Below, piece after piece: positions 277 to 62,856 of a stretch of 64,000 nt of DNA. The position numbers and the translations under genes were made by a program. The DNA lies in contig CM000153.2 of the NCBI GenBank assembly GCA_000004695.1, positions 960,001 to 1,024,000 of the forward strand. The letters run 5' to 3'. Numbering within the stretch: the first letter of the stretch is position 1; every line of letters starts with the position of its first letter. The notes beneath the pieces were generated by a model, which ran no database searches, had not been told where the DNA came from, and saw only the letters and a program-made list of their open reading frames with translations. This DNA comes from Dictyostelium discoideum. Taxonomy: Eukaryota.

Positions 277-1657
277 ATGACAGTTGACAAAGGTTTTCTT
301 TGAATGTAAGGAAATGTTAGATTTGCTGTAAGGTCAACTTTAATTTTTTTCACATTTTCTTTAAATCTAAACATATAAAATTGAAAACATTTAAATTAAA
401 AATAGAATTATGGGATTTGATCATCCTAAATTCTTATTTTCATATGAAATTAATAAAAAATAATTAATTTTGTTTGGAGATTCTTTTTTTTTTTTTTTCT
501 TTTTTTTCTCAATTTTTTTTTTTTCCCAATAACCCATAAAAAGTTTTAATCAAATATCAATACCATTTTTAAATTTGAATTAAATATATTTTTGATGGGC
601 ATATCAGGACATCGAGTTTAAAACCTATTCAGACTCCAGAATACAAATTAATTTGAGCGGCAACGTTCATTTCAATCTGCACTTATCTAATCATTAGAGG
701 AATGATTGCAAAATCAAACCTCTGAAGGTTAAAAAAATGCTGAGAAGTAACAGCATTAAAAAAAACATTTAGACCATAGTTGAGAGTCTTAAAATCCAAC
801 CAGTTAGTAGAGACTAAAAATTTACAAAACCATAAACTCGATCTGATACCTGAAATGCCTTTTTTTTATTTTTTATAATCTTAATGGTAATGGAAATCGA
901 AATGGAAATGGTAATGGTGTGACATACCTATTTATATCAACAAAAACAGTATTTTGTCTACAGAAACCTACTTGCAATAAAAGAAGTTTAAGAAGAAAAA
1001 AAATAATAATAAAAATTAAGTTAATTTGTTATAAAAATAAAAATAATAATTTAATTGATAATAATAAATAATATGTACATCATATTATTAAAAATAATAT
1101 AAATATTTATTTATTTACTAAATTATTTATTAATATATTTAATATTTTAAATTAAAAAAAAAATTATTTATTATTTTTTTTTTTTAAAATTGATTAATCA
1201 GTGTTTATCCATTAAAGGAAATAAACAATAGTTAAATAGTATTATGTATTTTATTTTTTAAGAAATTAGTTATAAAAAATTTCCTCAGGCCAGGATTATT
1301 TATTATTTAATCATTAAATTTTATTTTTTAATTATTTAATCTAAAAAAAACATATTATTGCCCATGAGTTTTTAAAATGAGAGACAATGACTGTTATCCT
1401 AAATAAATAAATTAAATAATTAATTAATTAAAAAAAAAGATAGTTTGGAGGAAGGTATTCTTAAATAATTATCAAAGAATTAGAGTTTTTAATTTTTTTT
1501 TTTTATTGAAATCCCACAAAATTATTTTTTATTCAAAATTTCTTAAATAATTAATTTTTTTAATCTTATTAAAAATGTGTAAAACATTTAAGTTGACCTT
1601 ACAGCAAATCCTGCAGTTCCTTCATTCTAAGAAAACCTTTCGCCAACTGTCTTTTTT
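277..1657. mobile_element. Candidate non-autonomous DNA transposon or foldback element bounded by ~85-90 bp imperfect terminal inverted repeats. Left TIR ~277-365, right TIR ~1566-1657. The ~1.2 kb interior is AT-rich with one GC-richer ~260 bp core at 595-860.
   Basis: Left 'gacagttgacaaaggttttctttgaatgtaaggaaatgttagatttgctgtaaggtcaactttaatttttttcacatttt'. Reverse complement of the right end: 'gacagttggcgaaaggttttcttagaatgaaggaactgcaggatttgctgtaaggtcaacttaaatgttttacacattttt'. The core 'atttgctgtaaggtcaactt' is perfectly mirrored. No long ORF lies inside. Confidence 0.35.
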
Positions 1658-22204: not shown

Positions 22205-24735
22205 ATGACAACAAATGATTTGGATGTTGATGCGTTATTAGAAGAGTCTATTAATAGAGTATTTATTAATTAAAAATAAAATTAAAAATAAAAATATATA
22301 CATATAAATATAAACATAAATATAAATATATTAATATAAATATAAATATAAATATAAGTATAAGTATAAATAAAAATATTAATATAAATTTTCTTTTTTT
22401 TTAAATTTTTTTTTATTTTTTTTTATTTAAAATAGGAAATGTCAAATAGAGATAGAGAAATAAATGAAAAGAAAAGAAGTGAACCAGATGATTCTCAAGA
22501 TTTAGATTTACTACGCTCAAATGATGAGAAAAGAAGGAGAAGTAGTAGTGAAAGAGATTATAGAGATAGTAGAGATTATAGAGATAGTAGAGACTATAGA
22601 GATAGTAGGGATTATAGAGACAGTAGGGATTATAGAGACAGAGATAGAGATAGAGATTATGGTGGTGGTGGTAGTGGAAGAGATAGAGACCGTGATAGAT
22701 ATGATAGATATGATAGAGACCGTGATAGATATGATAGAGATTATGGTGGTGGTGGTAGAAGTAGTGATAGATACGATAGAGAATATGGTGGTGGTAGTGG
22801 TAGAAGAGATAGTGGTAGGGATTATAGGGACAATAGAGATAGTAGTAGCAGAGACAGTAGAGACAGTAGAGATAGCAGAGATCGTAGTGATAGGGATCGT
22901 AGATATAGTTCAGAGAGTAGTAGTAGTAGGGATAGACACAGTGAAAGCAATGGAAATATCAATGGTAGCAGTGGTGGTTCCAATAGGGACAGCAAAGAAA
23001 AGCAAAAAGATTTACAAAATTCACCAACTACTTCAACCTCTTCTACTTCTTCAAGTAATACTACAACAAACAAAGAATCATCATCATCATCGATTTCGAC
23101 ATCTACACCACCAACATCATCATCGACAACATCATCATCATCAACATTACCAGAACCAGATGAAGAAAGTGATCAAAGAACAGTTTTTGTATCGAAATTA
23201 TCACAAAATATTGTTGAAAAGGATTTAAGTGATTTATTTTCACAAGCAGGTACAGTATTGAATGTAAGATTGATAACGGATAAAGTTACCAAGAGAATGA
23301 AGGGTGTTGGATATGTTGAATTCTCACAAAAGGAAATGGTAGATAAAGCCATAGCTCTTAGTGGTAGTGTATTGGATGGTCAACAGATTTTGGTTCACTC
23401 AATTCAACCAGAGAAAAAGGTTATAAAGAGTAATAGTACAGGTAGTTCTGGTGGTGAGAGTAGAATTTACGTGGGTTACATTCATCTCAGTGTTGCAGAG
23501 GAACAAATCAGAGTGATCTTTCAACCCTATGGTGATATTGATTTCATTAATATTCACACCAAACCTGGTATTTCAAAATATGCATTTATCCAATTCAAAA
23601 CTCAAGAGTCTGCAAAGAGAGCCATCACCGAATTGAATGGTTATGAACTTATGGGAAAGAATTTAAAATTAAATATGGTTAGTCAAGAAAAGAACTCTAA
23701 TGGCACTTATATTCAAATTCCACAAATTAATAATATCATTCATCATAATTATGCACCAAATCAACTTTATAATGCACAAGCCGCTGCTCATATTCATCAA
23801 CAACAGCAACAACAACAACAACACTATAGTTCATTCATACAACAACAACAACAACAACAACAAATGATGATGATGCAACAACAACAACATCACCATCATC
23901 ATCATCAGCAGCAACAACAACAATTTAATTCACAACTTCAACAACAACATCAATTCCAAGCACAAATTCAAGCACATTTACAAGGTACAAACCCTAATAA
24001 CAATAGTAATCAACATACTTTTAAGGAAAATAATGCTTTATCTTCTTTAGATGAAGATGACGGTGGTATACCTTTAACGGCACATGGTAGAGCCTTGTTA
24101 ACTGCAAAATTACAAGGAAAAACTCTTACACCTCCTTCTAATAATTTAAATAATAATATTAATAATAATAATAATAATATTAATAATTTAAATAATAGTA
24201 CTCATACAGTTATTAATCCAAGTTTAGCTTCAACTGGTATCATTACTCCTTATACTCAACTTCCACATTTCGCTTTTGTTTCAACTTGTTTAATTTTAAG
24301 AAATATGTTCGACCCTGAAACGTATGTAGTATTCATTTATTTTATTTTGACAATAATAATAATATCCCTTATTAATTTTTTTTTTTTTTTTTTAAATATT
24401 TTATAGTGAAACTGAAGAAAATTGGGACCAAGATATTCTATCAGAAACTCATGCAGAATGCTCAACTTTCGGTAAAATAATGCACATTTATTTAGATAAA
24501 AATACAAAGGTAACTAGTTTTATGATTGGTAAATAATTAAAAAAAAAAAAAAAAAAATACTAATTTAAAAAATTTTTACTTAAATAATTTTTAGGGATGT
24601 ATTTATATTAGATATGATAATAATGAGTCACCATTGAAGGCAATTCAAAAACTTCATGGTAGATGGTTTTCAAAAAAACAAATTATTGCTGAACTCGTTC
24701 CAGAGCCAGTATATAAATTACAATTCCCATTTTAA
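22205..24735 (+). CDS. RNA-binding protein 39 (RBM39/CAPER-alpha/HCC1) homolog. Domain order: RD/RDY/RS-like N-terminal repeats, RRM1, RRM2, Q-rich linker, C-terminal UHM. 4 exons (22205-22258, 22436-24321, 24407-24509, 24595-24735).
   Basis: Exon 1 'MTTNDLDVDALLEESINR' matches human RBM39 'MADDIDIEAMLEAPY'. RRM1 is 'RTVFVSKLSQNIVEKDLSDLFSQAGTVLNVRLITDKVTKRMKGVGYVEFS'. RRM2 is 'RIYVGYIHLSVAEEQIRVIFQPYGDIDFINIHT...YAFIQFKTQESAKRAITELNGYEL'. The UHM, across two small exons, is 'MFDPETETEENWDQDILSETHAECSTFGKIMHIYLDKNTKGCIYIRYDNNESPLKAIQKLHGRWFSKKQIIAELVPEPVY' (compare 'MFNPQTEEEVGWDTEIKDDVIEECNKHGGVIHIYVDKNSAQGNVYVKC...LHGRWFAGKMITAAYVP'). Intron 1 contains a (TATAAA)n hexamer repeat. Confidence 0.8.
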
Positions 24736-30707: not shown

Positions 30708-32008
30708 TTAATCTTTATTATTATTATTATTATTATTTTTATCAAGAGTATTTTCACTAGTGGGTAATGGAGATCCTTCATGTGAAGTAGTTGGATTTTC
30801 TTCTTTGTTTCCAAATAAAAAGAGTAATAATGAATTATTAACCTTTTCAGTGATTGATTTAATAATTGTATTTGATTTTTTAAAATCATCATGAATTGGG
30901 CAATTATTTTCAGGATTTTGGCATATGAATCCCTCTTTTGTTAGTCTTCCACATTTCATAAACATTTTTAATGATGGTGAAAACACACCAACATCTTGTT
31001 CTTTTTCTTGTTCTTTTTCTTCCTTCTCATCTTGGTTATCATCAATCTCCATGCCTTCTGTCCTTTCATTTTCATTTTCATTTTCATTTTCATTTTCATT
31101 TTCATTTTCATTTTCATTTTCATTTTCATTTTCATTTTCATTTACATTTTCATTTTCATTTACATTTTCATTTTCAATTTCTTCTTCAATTTCTTCTTCA
31201 ATTTCTTCTTCAATTTCTTCTTCAATTTCAATTTCTTCTTCAATTTCTTCTTCAATTTTATTTTCAATTTCAATTTCTTCTTCAATTTTATTTTCAATTT
31301 CTTCTTCAATTTCATTTTCAATTTCAATTTCTTTTTCAATTTCTTCTTCTGCATTTTTAATTTCATTTGTATTTTCAATTTCTTCAACAATTTCTTCTAG
31401 ATTTTTAATTTGTTCATGTACATTTTTATTTTTATATTTTTCTTTTTGATTATTGATTATTCCATTTTCAATTTCTTTATGTTTATTATAATTTTCAGAA
31501 GAAACTCTTAACTTTTTGGTAATATTATTATTATTAAGTATTGGTTTTTTATTTGATTGATTCTCATTAAAGTTTCTCTTATTTGTACTTTTGTAAGTAT
31601 TAACAGATTCTATATTTTTTATAATATCTCTAAAACACTCTATTCTAATTTTTTGGGGTAAATCATTAAATGACTTTAATAATGATTCTGCTTCATTTTT
31701 AGCTATTGATCTTAAATTAATTGCTTATGTTAATTATTTAATATAACAATAGAAATATTATGTTTTAATATATAATTAAAAAAAAAAAAAAAAAAAGTAT
31801 ACAAACCTATTTAAATAATCCTCATTTATATTTTTAATAATAGATTCACGATCTGATAATTTGGAGAGGAGAAAGAAAAAAAATAAAAATAAAAATAAAA
31901 AAAAAAAAAAAAAAAAAAAAAAAAGTGAATAAACTAATTTTGAAAAATAAATTTGAAAAATAAATTTGGAAACCTACATTCAAAAACATCGATTTCATCT
32001 ATATTCAT
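30708..32008 (-). CDS. Acidic repeat protein: N-terminal unique region, long (EN)n and (EIEEE)n tandem repeats encoded by hexamer and 15-mer DNA repeats, C-terminal Cys-containing region. The 5' end probably has 3 small exons (ATG ~32008).
   Basis: The open minus-strand frame reads '...KNEAESLLKSFNDLPQKIRIECFRDIIKNIESVNTYKS...EEIVEEIENTNEIKNAEEEIEKEIEIENEIEEEIENKIEEEIEIE...ENENENVNENEN...ERTEGMEIDDNQDEKEEKEQ...KCGRLTKEGFICQNPENNCPIHDDFKK...'. It is in frame with ORF 30708-31052. The upstream model is exon 'MNIDEIDVFE' (donor GTAGGT), then exon 'YRESIIKNINEDYLN' (donor GTTTGT). This model is low confidence. Confidence 0.4.
31060..31400. repeat. Coding tandem repeats: (CATTTT)n hexamer, ~16 units, then (TTCTTCTTCAATTTC)-type 15-mer variants
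   Basis: Visible as 'cattttcattttcattttc...' at 31063-31160, and 'ttcttcttcaatttcttcttcaatttc...' at 31170-31340. It is open in all six frames. Confidence 0.9.
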
Positions 32009-32255
32009 TTTCTATCTGTTTTTTTTTTTTTTTTTTTAATTTTTGTTTTGGCTTATCTCATTGTTCAATTTCTTTCTGTTTTTTTTTTTTTTTTTTTTTT
32101 TTTAATTTTTTTTTTATTTTTATTTTTTTTATTTTTATTTTTTTTCATTTTTTTTATTTTTTTTCAAAAAAAAAGTTTTTATTTTTTTTTTTCAAACTTT
32201 AAAGTGTGAAACCTTTATATTTATTATCAAAATTATTATTATTTTGTTATAATTA

Positions 32256-34188
32256 TGGCACCAAGAAAAAAAGCAGTCACTAAAAAAAAGACTGTTGAAA
32301 AATCGTATGTATTAAAAAAAATAATAATAAAATAAAATAAAATTAAATTAAACAAAAAATAAAAAATAAAGATATATTTTGGTTTTAATCTTTGGAAAAA
32401 AAAAAAAAATAAAAAAAAATCTAACTTTTTTTTTATTTTTATTTTTTTTTTCTATTTTTTTATTTTTTTTAATTCATTAAATTATTAAAAAAAAAATAAT
32501 AAGACCACCAATTGAAGAGGAAATAATTGAAGAACCAGTTGATGAAATTGTTGAATCAGATGGTGATGATAAAAAAAATAAAAAAAAAGGTAAAAGAAAA
32601 TCATCAAAGAAATCAAAAAAAGAAAAAGAGGAAAATGTAGAAGAGGAAGAACAAGATCAAGAAGAGGAAGAAGAGGGAAATAAAAAACAAAAAGAAGAAA
32701 ATGATGCAGATAAAAAAAGTAGAAAACATGATGAACATCGTAAAAAACGTGATAGTAAAAATCGTCGTTCACATAGTAAAAGTGATGAAAATGAAGAGGG
32801 TGAAGAAGATGATGAAGAAAGAAGAAAGAAAAGAAGACGTAGAAAACATAGAGAAAAAAGAAAAAAGAATGGAAATAAAGAGGAGGAGGAAGAAGAAGAA
32901 CAAGATGATGAACATGAAGATCAAAATGTTGAAGAAGATGAAGAAGATGTAAATGTAGAAAAACAAAAACAACAACAACAACAAAGTGATTTTGATGAAG
33001 AAGAAAAAGAAGAAGAGAAAGAAGAGGAGGAGGAAGAGGAGCAAATAGAAATTAAAAAAAGATCAAAAAAGAGAAATAGTATAGATTCAGGTAGAAAAGA
33101 TAAATCTAAAAAAAGAAAATCAAAAAAGAAAAAGAGAGGGCAGAATGATGATGATGATGATGATGATGATAATGACGATGATGATGATGACCAAGATGAG
33201 GAAAAAGAATATGAACAAGATGAAGATGTAAATCAAGAATCAATTGTTAGTGAAAAAGAAGAAGAGGAGGATGAAGAAAAACAATCACAAGGCAGTGAAG
33301 ATGAGGAAAAACAATCTGAAAATGAAAGAAGAAATGATCAAGATTATACAGATAGAGAGCGTGAAAGAAATAGATCACGTGATAGAGACAGTAGGGATTA
33401 TAGTAGTAGAAGTGATCATAGAGATTATAGAGATAGAGATAGAGATAGATCACGTGATAGAGATAGAGACTATAGAGATAGTAGAGATTATAGGGATAGA
33501 GATAGAGACTATAGAGACAGAGATAGAGATCACTATAGTAGTGGTGGTAGTAGTAGTAGTAGTAGAGATCATAGGGATCATAGAGATAGAGATTATAGAG
33601 ATAGAGATAGAGATCATAGGGATAGATCCCGTGATAGGGATAGAGATCATTATAGTAGTAGTAGTGGTAGCAGTAGCAATAGAAGGAGCAGAGATAGGGA
33701 TAATGATAGTAAAAGAGATGAAAAAAGCAGCAGTAGCAATAACAGCAACAACAGCACCTCAACCACCAGCAATAATAACGCCTCATCAAATAATGTAAAA
33801 ATTGTACAACCTCCAAAAGAAAATTTCTTTTCAAATTATAGAGCCATACAATCATCAATTATCCCAACTCATAATAAGAGTAAATTTGGTGAAAGAATTC
33901 TTAGTATAGCTCCAACTGAACCACCTCCAAATTTCCAAATCCCCCTATCAAAACCTTACAGAGATGATTCCTTACAACAAAATAATGATAATAATAATAA
34001 CAGTAGCAATAATAATAGTAATAATAGTAATAATAATTTTAATAATGACAATAACCCGTATAATAATTCAAACAATTATAATATGAATAACTCTAATACC
34101 TCTCCATATAATAACAGTAACAATAGTAATAGTAACAGTAGTTATTATAATGATAACGATTATAATAACAACAACAACAACAATAATA

Positions 34189-34265
<77 letters not shown>

Positions 34266-35015
34266 TTTAATAATAGTAATAGTAACAGTAGTGAATCGAA
34301 ACCAAATTATTTTAATAATCTTAGTAATGTATTTAATCAAATTACAAAACCATTAGAAAATTATAAAAATAATGGTAAAAATGAAAACAATAATAATAAT
34401 AATAATAAAAATAAAAATGAAGATGAAAAGAGAATAGATTTAGTACAAACAAAATTATCTTTGAAATCTTCAAAATCCACACCACAGACATATAATGAAA
34501 AAGAATTTAAGGTTCAAATTTCAAATATTGTTGTTAAAAAATTAAAAAAATATTATAAAACTAAAATTACAACCAAAGAAGATTTCCAATATCTTGGAAA
34601 GAAATTTACAGATTTCGTAATAACAAAAGAACGTGGTAATCAAACTATTAATAAAGACTCTGAAAAGAAAATTGAAAAAGTAATTGATAACTATTTTGAG
34701 AAAAAAGAAGTGTATGATAGAAAAAAAGATAAAGATTATAAAAAAGATGATGGTGATAAACTAATTAATTCTAGTATTGATATTTCCAATGATTCAAACC
34801 TTAGTGAATCTTCAATTACAATTACTTCAACTTCAACCTCAACCTCAACCTCAGCCTTAACCTCACCTAAAACAACAGGAACTACAACTTCAACTATAAC
34901 TACAGTAACTTCAACCTCAACATCCTCTATTGAAAATACAAAAATCTTGGTTGATGACGAAAAATTCAAAACAAATATCCAAAATGAAACATCAAAAGAA
35001 TCAAATTCAATCTAA
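32256..35015 (+). CDS. RD/RDY/RS-like repeat, highly acidic, poly-N protein with a C-terminal SRI-like (Set2-Rpb1-interacting) domain. 2 exons (32256-32304, 32504-35015).
   Basis: Exon 1 is 'MAPRKKAVTKKKTVEKS' with a GTATGT donor. Exon 2 starts after 'aaataataag'. A continuous open frame follows: 'PPIEEEIIEEPVDE...(E/D/K-rich)...RDRDSRDYSSRSDHRDYRDRDRDRSRDRDRDYRDSRDYRDRDRDYRDRDRDHYSSGGSSSS...poly-N...'. It is in frame with ORF 34083-35015. The C-terminal 'EFKVQISNIVVKKLKKYYKTKITTKEDFQYLGKKFTDFVITKERGNQTINKDSEKKIEKVIDNYFEKK' resembles SRI domains as I recall them for SETD2 and RECQL5. Confidence 0.55.
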
Positions 35016-35558: not shown

Positions 35559-39815
<4,257 letters not shown>

Positions 39816-60191: not shown

Positions 60192-62856
60192 TTATGTATC
60201 AAATAAAACTTCTTCTTCATTATGATAATAATTATTATTACTATTTATAATTGAATTATTATATTGTTGAGTAGCAGATTTATGTTTATAGTTTTTATTT
60301 TTAATGATTTCATTCATTCTTTTTAAGAATCTTTGTTTATAAGGTTCAGGTCTAGTTGCAGAGATACCATCACCATCCTTTCTAAATAAATAAACCTTTA
60401 AAAATCTTTCCAATTTCTTACTAAAATCATAAAGTTGAAGTATATCAATAACACCAATATAATAGATTTCTTTTTCATCTGCTGATATAATACCATTTGA
60501 AAAATCGAATGAATTTGAAATTAATGATGAATTTGTAAAACTACCTTTTAATAAACCACCACTACCATGTCCATTATTATTATTATTAAAATTACTACCA
60601 CTACTACCACTACCAATACCATTACTATTACTATTACTATTATTATTATTTAAATTTGAACCACTTAAAATATTATTAATATTACCACCAGATTCAATTA
60701 ATTTCTTTTTAAAATCATCATTATTTGGAATTACACCAATTAGTAAAGAATAATCCATAATATTTAAAGAGGTTAAGAAAGCAGAATCATTTTTTAATTG
60801 TTGAATGATTGAATGACTAAAACCATCTGGTAAATTTAAAAATTTTCTAAAGTTTACAAAATCTAAATCTAAACCTAATCCATCACCTTTGAACAAAGGA
60901 TCATTGCCACCTCTGTTAACTTTTGAACCTTTAAGATCATACCTTTCTCTAATCTTTATACCTTGTGGAATTGTACCAAATACATTGGACATGATAGCCA
61001 AATAGATAGTATGATCATTTGGCATTGAAATCTTATGACAACCATAGAACCTCAATAGGAATGAATGGTTGTTCTTTACGAGATAGTTGTAAAAATTGTT
61101 GATTTTCTTTTTCAATAATACCGATTCTTGACGAGTGATAGTTTTAATTAAAAATTTATTATCTGGTGAGAAACACATAAAACTTCCACTTTTACCCTCT
61201 GAGAATTTCTGATTCGATAAATTCTCAAAAAACAACGATGAATCAAATGATTTCAAATAATCTGATGGTGTTATATTATTTAATGCTCTAATCTTTGCAA
61301 ATATATTTGGACAATAATCTTTAAATTTATGACTACCCATATTTGTATCTGGTGAAATATCAAAAATATCTTTAAATAATTCTTTTTCTGTATAAACTTT
61401 AAATTGTTCATTTATATTATCAAAATTATCATTACTATTATTATTATTATTATTAATATTATTATTACTATTATAATTATGATTAATTGGTGTTGATGAA
61501 GATGATGGTGATGATGATGATAATGAGTCAAATGGTAAATGTTGATGAATATCACCACCAATATGAGATTGATTATTATTATTATTTAATGAGGAGGAAT
61601 TTGATAAATTTAAATTATCATTTACAGATAATGCAATACCACGTAATGAACATGTTAAAATATTATTACGTAACATTACGGCCAATTGAGTTGGATCTTG
61701 ATTTTCATCTTGAAGTGAACGAATTAGTGGTGTGTTTTCACCATCTTTAATGAATTTCTTTGAGAATGGTAAATATTTCATAATGTTACCAAGGAAACCT
61801 CTGAGAATTGAAGGATTTGTAATCCAAATGAGTGCATTCATAAAACCTTGAATCGATACACCAATTGCATCGAAAAACATTAACACACTCGCTTGGTTGG
61901 GTGCATCATGGTGGCCTGCGATCTGCGAGATTCTGTGTGCCAATGGGCCTGCCCAACAGAGGATAAACACCAATGTGTAGGTCGACATTCTCAATAACAT
62001 TCCAGTACGATTACGATCTGACCATGAGTTATTGGTGGTTGATGATGTTAGTGATTTATTTCTAGTGGAGATTGCTGCTATGATCAATGAGGAGATCGAG
62101 ATTGAAAAGTATGCTAAAAGTGGTATGAAAAACATCAATAGCAATGGCTTGTCCTCTGCCTTGATCCAACATGTGCCATCGCCACTTGGTCCTATGACAT
62201 CGTAATTCTTGAACAGTATCGCACTTGTCACTATCGAGTACGACCATATCCAACCATGATAAAACTTGGAATAGGTTGAACTATTCTCGAATGGTCTACT
62301 CGTGCTAATGATCAAATTCAACGATATCATACCACTCCATCCAATAGATGCCAATCCAAAGAATTGCTGTATACCTGCTTGTAAATAACATGCCACCCTT
62401 TTCGTTTGAAAACTGTCACTATGTGGTAACACTGCTGTCACCAAATACTTTAAACTAAACAACACATCACAAACTGATAAAAAAAAGATCATACGTGTTG
62501 GATGTTTCTTTAAATCTTTAATAGTAATAAATGTAATAATAACAAATAATGCTCCAATACATGATAATAATGCTAAAGATCCTGATACTCTATATAATGT
62601 CTAAATATATAAAATAAATATATAAAATAAATAAATAAATAAAAAAAAAGTAGGTTAAAAAATTTTTTTTTTTTTTTTTTTTTTTTACAAATGTGAGAAT
62701 TGTTGTGTGTAGATATAAATCGGTTTGACCTATTTTTTTTTTTTTTTTTTTATTATTATTATTAAAAAAATTACTTACATGAATTTCTGGACTTTCACTT
62801 GATCCACCATGAGAAGAATCAAATGCATCTAATGAAATTCTTCCAGCAAAAGACAT
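60192..62856 (-). CDS. rpkA: Receptor phosphatidylinositol-phosphate kinase: N-terminal 7TM GPCR domain fused to a C-terminal PIP5K catalytic domain (RpkA-like). 2 exons (62856-62779, 62600-60192).
   Basis: Exon 1 is 'MSFAGRISLDAFDSSHGGSSESPEIH' with a GTAAGT donor. The acceptor is 'atatatttag'. Exon 2 starts 'TLYRVSGSLALLSCIGALFVIITFI...' and has 7 hydrophobic helices. The PIPK core is 'SGSFMCFSPDNKFLIKTITRQE...MDYSLLIGV...YYIGVIDILQLYDFSKKLERFLK'. Confidence 0.75.

Follow-up and report, generated by a model that had tools for sequence, protein, structure and literature searches.

Within a 64,000-nucleotide stretch of Dictyostelium discoideum DNA (hereafter the window), we find a two-exon protein-coding gene whose 2562-nt spliced coding sequence (CDS) specifies an 853-aa protein, mostly intrinsically disordered, with a single folded module: a C-terminal Set2-Rpb1-interacting (SRI) domain. 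On balance, this protein is probably a catalytically inert RNA polymerase II (Pol II) adaptor that couples elongation to pre-mRNA processing in a SCAF1-like manner. The evidence comes from the gene model, the fold and family of the SRI domain, a conserved island upstream of it, and an arginine/aspartate-rich block that recurs in a neighboring splicing-factor gene.

Gene model and coding evidence

Exon 1 (32255..32304, forward strand) opens with the ATG at 32255–32257, one base before the start at 32256 given in an earlier sequence-only reading of this DNA. Its 50 nt (GC 32%) amount to 16 codons plus 2 nt and yield the basic segment aa 1–17, MAPRKKAVTKKKTVEK-S. The exon is thus present as that reading had it, but with 16 complete codons rather than 17: codon 17 spans the junction, with TC on the exon 1 side and A on the exon 2 side. 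The intervening phase 2 intron (32305..32503, forward strand; 199 nt, GTATGT...AATAAG) has its GTATGT donor at 32305 and its acceptor AG at 32502–32503, and its removal restores the frame exactly. Read without splicing, exon 1 runs into a stop within 10 codons. The base composition follows the same boundaries, with a GC content of 7% in the intron versus 28–32% in the exons and 15% in the flanks.

Exon 2 (32504..35015, forward strand) encodes aa 17–853 and continues uninterrupted to the TAA stop at 35013–35015. The stop-free frame that contains it starts at 32481 and extends for 844 codons, ranking fifth by length among 9,489 open runs in the window, whose median is 5 codons. The longest open run in 200 shuffles of the region reached 103 codons, against 844 in the real sequence, and the GC content at codon positions 1, 2, and 3 is 38/30/14% across the whole CDS. 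Frame length, shuffles, and codon-position GC together make the open frame coding beyond reasonable doubt. The ~850-aa spliced product that had been proposed, a ~2.5 kb open frame joined to a small first exon through the donor at 32305, is therefore upheld at 853 aa.

We enumerated every upstream combination of ATG, GT, and AG as first-exon alternatives. The ATG at 32255 is the sole ATG with a consensus donor that reaches the open frame, and the exon-1 splice, a prediction from sequence, appears to be the only sensible start for it. An alternative first exon from the ATG at 31416 is in frame, but was rejected for its non-consensus GTTTAT donor and a ~1 kb intron through simple repeats. M1 and M544 are the only Met residues of the protein, and a track of open reading frames (ORFs) that begins each frame at an ATG therefore lists only the final 310 aa, as had been noticed earlier. 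The unannotated look of the gene likewise stems from applying an ATG-to-stop, bacterial-style ORF track to a spliced eukaryotic gene.

The 1.2 kb upstream of the gene is homopolymer-rich intergenic sequence (15% GC) with no evident coding sequence. It adjoins an ORF on the opposite strand (30708–31052), which suggests a divergently oriented neighbor. The gene sits between this neighbor and a tyrosine-kinase-like kinase gene, with IMP dehydrogenase about 6 kb away. ORFs on the minus strand within the locus (e.g., 33247–33858 and 34068–34340) are of low complexity and arise from reading the RD and poly-Asn repeats in antisense.

The surrounding window has a GC content of 23% and abundant poly-Asn and poly-Gln tracts. 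It holds two Rfam 'Dictyostelium Class I RNA' genes, a 7TM-receptor/PIP5-kinase fusion matching the slime-mould cAMP-receptor family, and genes for IMP dehydrogenase, LMBR1, PIG-X, and LIM proteins. An exact look-up in a 15-billion-protein collection returned neither the 853-aa product nor the 310-aa ORF. Four neighboring products, IMP dehydrogenase included, were equally absent, so the look-up is uninformative on annotation. In the literature library searched, no paper names both Dictyostelium and the SRI domain. The gene itself is probably ordinary and already catalogued in this sequenced model organism, and the domain assignment routine.

Architecture of the 853-aa protein

The basic N-terminal segment leads into a charged low-complexity region (aa 18–300, 32505..33353, forward strand) composed of 27% E, 18% K, and 15% D, with a net charge of −48. 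K/R clusters in this region, such as RRKKRRRRKHREKRKK, appear by sequence to resemble nuclear localization signals. A mixed-charge block of RD, RDY, and RDS repeats follows (aa 301–420, 33354..33713, forward strand; R 33%, D 28%, S 20%), with the sequence RDRDYRDSRDYRD... and a net charge of +6. It holds 31 RD dipeptides versus eight RS/SR, and 33 when all R[DE] dipeptides are counted; at the DNA level, it has tandem periodicities of 39 nt and 6 nt. Across the entire protein, RD occurs 34 times and RDY six times.

C-terminal of the repeats, a conserved non-repetitive island (aa 446–505, 33789..33968, forward strand), HNKSKFGERILSIAPTEPP, contains the core SKFGERI (nt 33879–33899). Next comes a poly-Asn/Asn-Ser low-complexity tract (aa 506–655, 33969..34418, forward strand) that is 59% Asn and carries (AAT)n arrays at 33981–34285. 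The acidic N-terminus, RS-like repeats, and poly-N stretch described in the sequence-only reading are all there. The SRI domain occupies aa 688–751 (34515..34706, forward strand), C-terminal of the residues ~640–720 where it had been placed, within a folded domain of aa 684–755. A Ser/Thr-rich tail without a domain match (aa 756–853, 34719..35012, forward strand) completes the chain. In a Pfam scan of all 853 residues, SRI is the sole family found, with no SET, helicase, RING, or PHD domain.

The C-terminal module is a SETD2-type SRI domain

On the whole protein, the Pfam SRI family (PF08236) matches aa 688–751 with 36.9 bits and an E-value of 4.7e-9, above the curated gathering score of 23.5 bits; the isolated domain scores 43.0 bits. 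We built a profile, A1, from the SRI segment of the 853-aa protein and 28 relatives. Searched against the PDB, A1 retrieves the human SETD2 SRI domain (2a7o) with an E-value of 5.6e-19, SETD2 cryo-EM entries (e.g., 9egz) with 2.9e-17, and the RECQL5 SRI domain with 6.5e-9. For A1, AlphaFold2 predicts a three-helix bundle with confidence (pLDDT 84.1, pTM 0.71), its helices at about aa 682–700, 708–725, and 734–750, and this fold can be superimposed on solved SRI structures. A Foldseek search against the PDB gave nothing significant. The SETD2 SRI domain is the nearest by sequence and fold, at 33% identity.

A single-sequence PDB search had placed yeast Prp21 (E-value 7e-4) ahead of the SETD2 SRI domain (E-value 0.0098). 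We discarded Prp21 as a compositional match of K/D/E-rich helices because the family profile does not retrieve it at E ≤ 1, whereas the SETD2 match improves from its single-sequence value to that of 2a7o above. Three partly independent routes thus agree that the domain is, as judged from sequence and predicted fold, an SRI domain. The SRI-like C-terminal segment of the sequence-only reading, which had been made to depend on an SRI-domain hit, is borne out by both the Pfam and the SETD2 matches.

In SETD2, the interface with the Pol II C-terminal domain (CTD) comprises V2483, F2505, K2506, R2510, and H2514, and the substitutions F2505A, K2506A, and H2514A lead to loss of Pol II binding (PMC8294582). 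The same domain has a second ligand, the C-terminal tail of α-tubulin, bound via overlapping residues (PMC8294582). Among the equivalents in the 853-aa protein, V694 and F711 are identical, K716 is conservative, and Q712 and D720 take the places of K2506 and H2514, respectively. In an alignment of the 29-sequence family, Lys occupies the K2506 position in 26 sequences and His the H2514 position in 19. The folded domain (aa 684–755) is net basic, with 18 K+R versus 12 D+E. As Q712 and D720 are non-conservative, ligand specificity may be weakened or altered. The proposal that the protein is a Pol II CTD-associated coupling factor would still fit, slightly weakened by the two changed residues out of five.

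Relatives share an upstream island and an SRI domain

When the C-terminal 119 aa served as query, word-indexed searching for homologues found no match. An exhaustive HMMER search of 1.84 billion representative proteins recovered the 28 relatives, the best at 45% identity, and a C-terminal SRI domain is present in all eight homologues scanned. By Pfam, SRI is the only domain in P0006 (597 aa), P0007 (566 aa), P0013 (710 aa), P0024 (507 aa), and P0022 (406 aa). In the three that were looked up (P0006, P0007, and P0022), a complete ORF takes up the whole of a short metagenome contig that resembles a transcript. The SRI-only relatives have in common an acidic N-terminus, a K/R/D/E/S-rich block, an island of the form 'SKF[GAT]E.[IL]', and the C-terminal SRI domain, and a 'PRYR[DNT]Y' motif is frequent among them.

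We built a hidden Markov model of the island from six homologues only, leaving the 853-aa protein out, and ran it over the window. Its best match among 1,767 six-frame peptides is aa 474–492 of the protein, with an E-value of 0.0015 versus 0.35 for the runner-up. The region upstream of Met544 is therefore evolutionarily tied to the SRI domain. A SET-less family of SETD2-type SRI proteins with this upstream island appears to be present in several microbial eukaryotes.

The closest relative recovered, P0001, lies on a contig of 30% GC (L001). Like the 853-aa protein, P0001 carries an acidic region, the island, poly-Asn, and the SRI domain, but no RD repeats, so the extent of the RD block is specific to the lineage. 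Given P0001, the block may be a lineage-specific low-complexity expansion and not a functional module. Two other relatives, P0009 and P0026, combine the SRI domain with zf-4CXXC_R1, an RRM, four CCHC knuckles, and RDY repeats, a domain mix that underlines the portability of SRI as a docking module.

RD repeats recur in an RBM39-type neighbor

Only two products of the 64-kb window have at least six RD dipeptides: the 853-aa protein, with 34, and the product of a gene 10 kb upstream (22439–24406), with 31. The latter encodes two RRMs and an RBM39 linker domain, which identify it as an RBM39/CAPER-type splicing factor, and carries RDYRDS repeats at its N-terminus, of the same RDY/RDS type as in the 853-aa protein. 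Animal RBM39 has an RS domain at its N-terminus. From the position of the repeats in this neighbor, we read RD(Y/S) repeats as this genome's counterpart of RS domains.

RS domains behave like phospho-tunable arginine-rich mixed-charge domains (R-MCDs) (bioRxiv 10.1101/771592). Pure RD repeats of at least 30 units localize to nuclear speckles, as tested with synthetic RD30–60, which sets the threshold for a mixed-charge domain at about 30 RD units or more (bioRxiv 10.1101/771592). With 31 RD in 120 residues, aa 301–420 form a block, close to neutral in charge, in which Arg alternates with acidic residues and which falls within the R-MCD class. Compared to the R-MCDs and RS domains of speckle proteins, however, the block is broken by Tyr, Ser, His, and poly-Ser runs.

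Comparison with known SRI proteins

Human SCAF1 (SR-related CTD-associated factor 1, or SFRS19), SCAF11, and PHRF1 are the known SRI proteins with RS-type regions (bioRxiv 10.64898/2025.12.08.691990). SCAF1 has an SRI and a short RS domain as its only annotated domains. Its SRI binds the Ser2P/Ser5P CTD directly, brings the protein to elongating Pol II, is needed for poly(A)-site function, and can be replaced by a CID domain, making it a pure recruitment module (bioRxiv 10.64898/2025.12.08.691990). The 853-aa protein resembles SCAF1 in that both are long, disordered, and otherwise domain-less, with acidic tracts, and both pair an Arg-rich alternating-charge block with one SRI-fold domain at the C-terminus. 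The two differ in the repeats, RS in SCAF1 and RD/RDY here, and in the domain itself, which belongs to the PF23030 subfamily in SCAF1 and to PF08236 here.

We assessed this difference with PF23030 (SCAF11-like_C) representatives retrieved from the database by bait and carrying the source names SFRS19-like or PHRF1. All retrieved SFRS19-like and PHRF1 sequences carry PF23030, their fragments scoring 40–53 bits on this family and weakly on PF08236. Against the SRI domain of the 853-aa protein, PF23030 gives no match at E ≤ 10; this domain scores on PF08236 only and is thus of the canonical Set2/SETD2 type. An hhalign comparison of the SRI family with the PF23030 set yields a probability of 82%, an E-value of 1e-5, and 19% identity, which places the two in the same superfamily but in different subfamilies. 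We therefore rejected orthology to SCAF1, SCAF11, or PHRF1: the domain has no PF23030 match, and the relation is seen at the profile–profile level only. The resemblance to SCAF1 is one of architecture and, by analogy, of probable mode of action, rather than of subfamily or orthology.

The remaining SRI proteins differ in what accompanies the domain. Set2/SETD2 has an AWS/SET/post-SET module that is missing here (no SET-related Pfam match at E ≤ 10 within the 853 aa), and its SRI domain (2a7o, 2c5z) has K2506 and H2514 where the 853-aa protein has Gln and Asp. RECQL5 has a RecQ helicase core and further modules that bind Pol II, whereas no helicase match is found here, and the RING or PHD fingers of SCAF11 and PHRF1 likewise have no counterpart. 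As SET, helicase, RING, and PHD domains are all missing, the protein is no homologue, in the full sense, of Set2, RECQL5, PHRF1, or SCAF11.

Discussion

The reading we favor is that of a Pol II adaptor. The Pol II CTD of D. discoideum is canonical, and kinases of the Cdk7/8/9 type are present in this species (PMC521075). The SRI domain would dock on elongating Pol II through heptad repeats phosphorylated at Ser2 and Ser5, while the RD(/Ser/Tyr) block and the flanking charged regions would engage SR-type RNA-processing factors or speckle-like condensates. The RD block would stand in for an RS domain in the Dictyostelium genome, and the protein, itself without enzymatic activity, would act as an adaptor between transcription elongation and pre-mRNA processing. 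CTD binding, nuclear or speckle localization, and a role in RNA processing are thus proposed for the 853-aa protein by analogy.

The main rival to this reading follows from the changes on the binding face: the SRI fold may have been re-purposed for a partner other than the phospho-CTD, such as another acidic or phosphorylated tail, and the protein would then be no Pol II adaptor. We regard this as unlikely. Q712 and D720 sit exactly where alanine substitutions in SETD2 abolish Pol II binding, and SETD2 itself accommodates tubulin through overlapping residues (PMC8294582). The domain nevertheless remains strongly basic, the His position also varies in a few other family members, and the charged/RD layout is typical of nuclear RNA-processing proteins.

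Two further alternatives concern the extent of the gene and its origin. It is very improbable that the real product is the 310-aa ATG-initiated ORF (34083–35015) alone, with the upstream frame and the 50-nt exon untranslated. The mechanical ORF list gives only this part of the frame; however, an 844-codon run is beyond chance in a genome of 23% GC, given the shuffle maximum of 103, and the codon-position periodicity spans the whole CDS. Moreover, the SKF island lies upstream of M544, and homologues join island and SRI domain in one uninterrupted ORF. A gene for a Set2/SETD2 H3K36 methyltransferase that has decayed or been split, with its SET domain lost or in unrecognized upstream exons, would account for the closeness of the SETD2 SRI domain by sequence and fold, yet strikes us as hardly credible. 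The 853 aa contain no AWS, SET, or post-SET match, the 1.2 kb upstream is GC-poor, homopolymer-rich intergenic sequence beside an opposite-strand ORF, and complete SET-less homologue ORFs of the same layout exist in other eukaryotes.

Returning to the adaptor reading, a broader and decidedly tentative version of it is possible. The 853-aa protein and its environmental relatives might constitute an unnamed, ancient, SET-less SETD2-type SRI family, distinct from metazoan SCAF1/SCAF11/PHRF1, that served as a CTD adaptor predating them; the Dictyostelium RD block would then be a constitutive, phosphorylation-independent mimic of a phospho-RS domain. This would run counter to the view that regulators of the SCAF type belong to higher eukaryotes (bioRxiv 10.64898/2025.12.08.691990); if the adaptor reading is true, SCAF-like adaptors would extend beyond animals. 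It would also allow the role of an SRI plus mixed-charge domain on elongating Pol II to be studied apart from the SET, helicase, and RING activities that confound the better-known SRI proteins. The K→Q and H→D changes, as naturally occurring variants at CTD-contact positions, would bear on which of these contacts are essential. If our inference holds, Dictyostelium would provide a simple, genetically tractable system with a non-catalytic SRI adaptor, in which roles in poly(A)-site choice, splicing coupling, and condensate recruitment could be addressed.

Sequence features flanking the SRI gene

The gene for the SRI (Set2-Rpb1-interacting) domain protein is preceded upstream by a long hexanucleotide-type simple repeat (window 30925-31450, both strands), through which several frames remain open (FSFSFS, HFHFHF, KLKKKL...), giving rise to spurious ORFs in the mechanical, bacterial-style ATG-to-stop list. 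A minus-strand ORF (30708-31052) adjoins this repeat, and its orientation suggests that the upstream neighbor of the SRI gene is divergent. On the other side, the convergent neighbor (35559-39398, minus strand) is an open frame of 1279 residues, as counted from a listed GTG that is perhaps not the true start or first exon. Its product contains a tyrosine-kinase-like Ser/Thr kinase domain (res. 700-960) surrounded by very long homopolymer runs of Asn, Gln, and Thr.

In the SRI-gene product itself, the Ser/Thr tail is encoded around res. ~790-825 by TCAACC / 27-nt tandem repeats (TSTSTS...; window 34827-34921, plus strand). The tail has a sub-threshold match to the Pfam 'Mucin' family and may represent low complexity of the O-glycosylation or phosphorylation type, or mere microsatellite expansion.

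Other genes in the window

RD-type repeats also occur in an RBM39/CAPER-type splicing-factor gene (22439-24406, plus strand), whose product has an N-terminus made up of RDYRDS/RDRDRY repeats, together with two RRM_1 domains and the RBM39 linker; the last ~40 residues of this ORF look like intron read-through. A single minus-strand ORF (60192-62492) encodes a receptor-phosphatidylinositol-kinase fusion, consisting of a 7-transmembrane receptor (Dicty_CAR/Frizzled-like) and a PIP5K lipid-kinase domain. Two matches to Dictyostelium Class I RNA (Rfam RF01414), a group of dictyostelid-specific small non-coding RNA genes, score above the gathering score (281-338, minus strand, 55.6 bits; 1592-1649, plus strand, 43.1 bits).

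Environmental relatives of the SRI-gene product

The closest relative, P0001, shares 45% identity in the SRI domain and is encoded on a metagenome contig of 30% GC (L001, 801-2230, plus strand), where a COMM-domain gene adjoins it. The P0001 gene is broken into three overlapping frames (801-1154, 1144-1527, and 1493-2230), a pattern that suggests short introns or frameshifts. Another relative, the environmental eukaryotic protein P0009 (contig L005, 937-4230), carries its SRI domain at the C-terminus and also contains a zf-4CXXC_R1 domain, one RRM, four zinc knuckles of the CCHC type, and RDY/RDR repeats; P0026, likewise eukaryotic, has the same layout. We know of no characterized protein organized in this way; the predicted architecture joins a Pol II-docking domain to RNA-binding modules.
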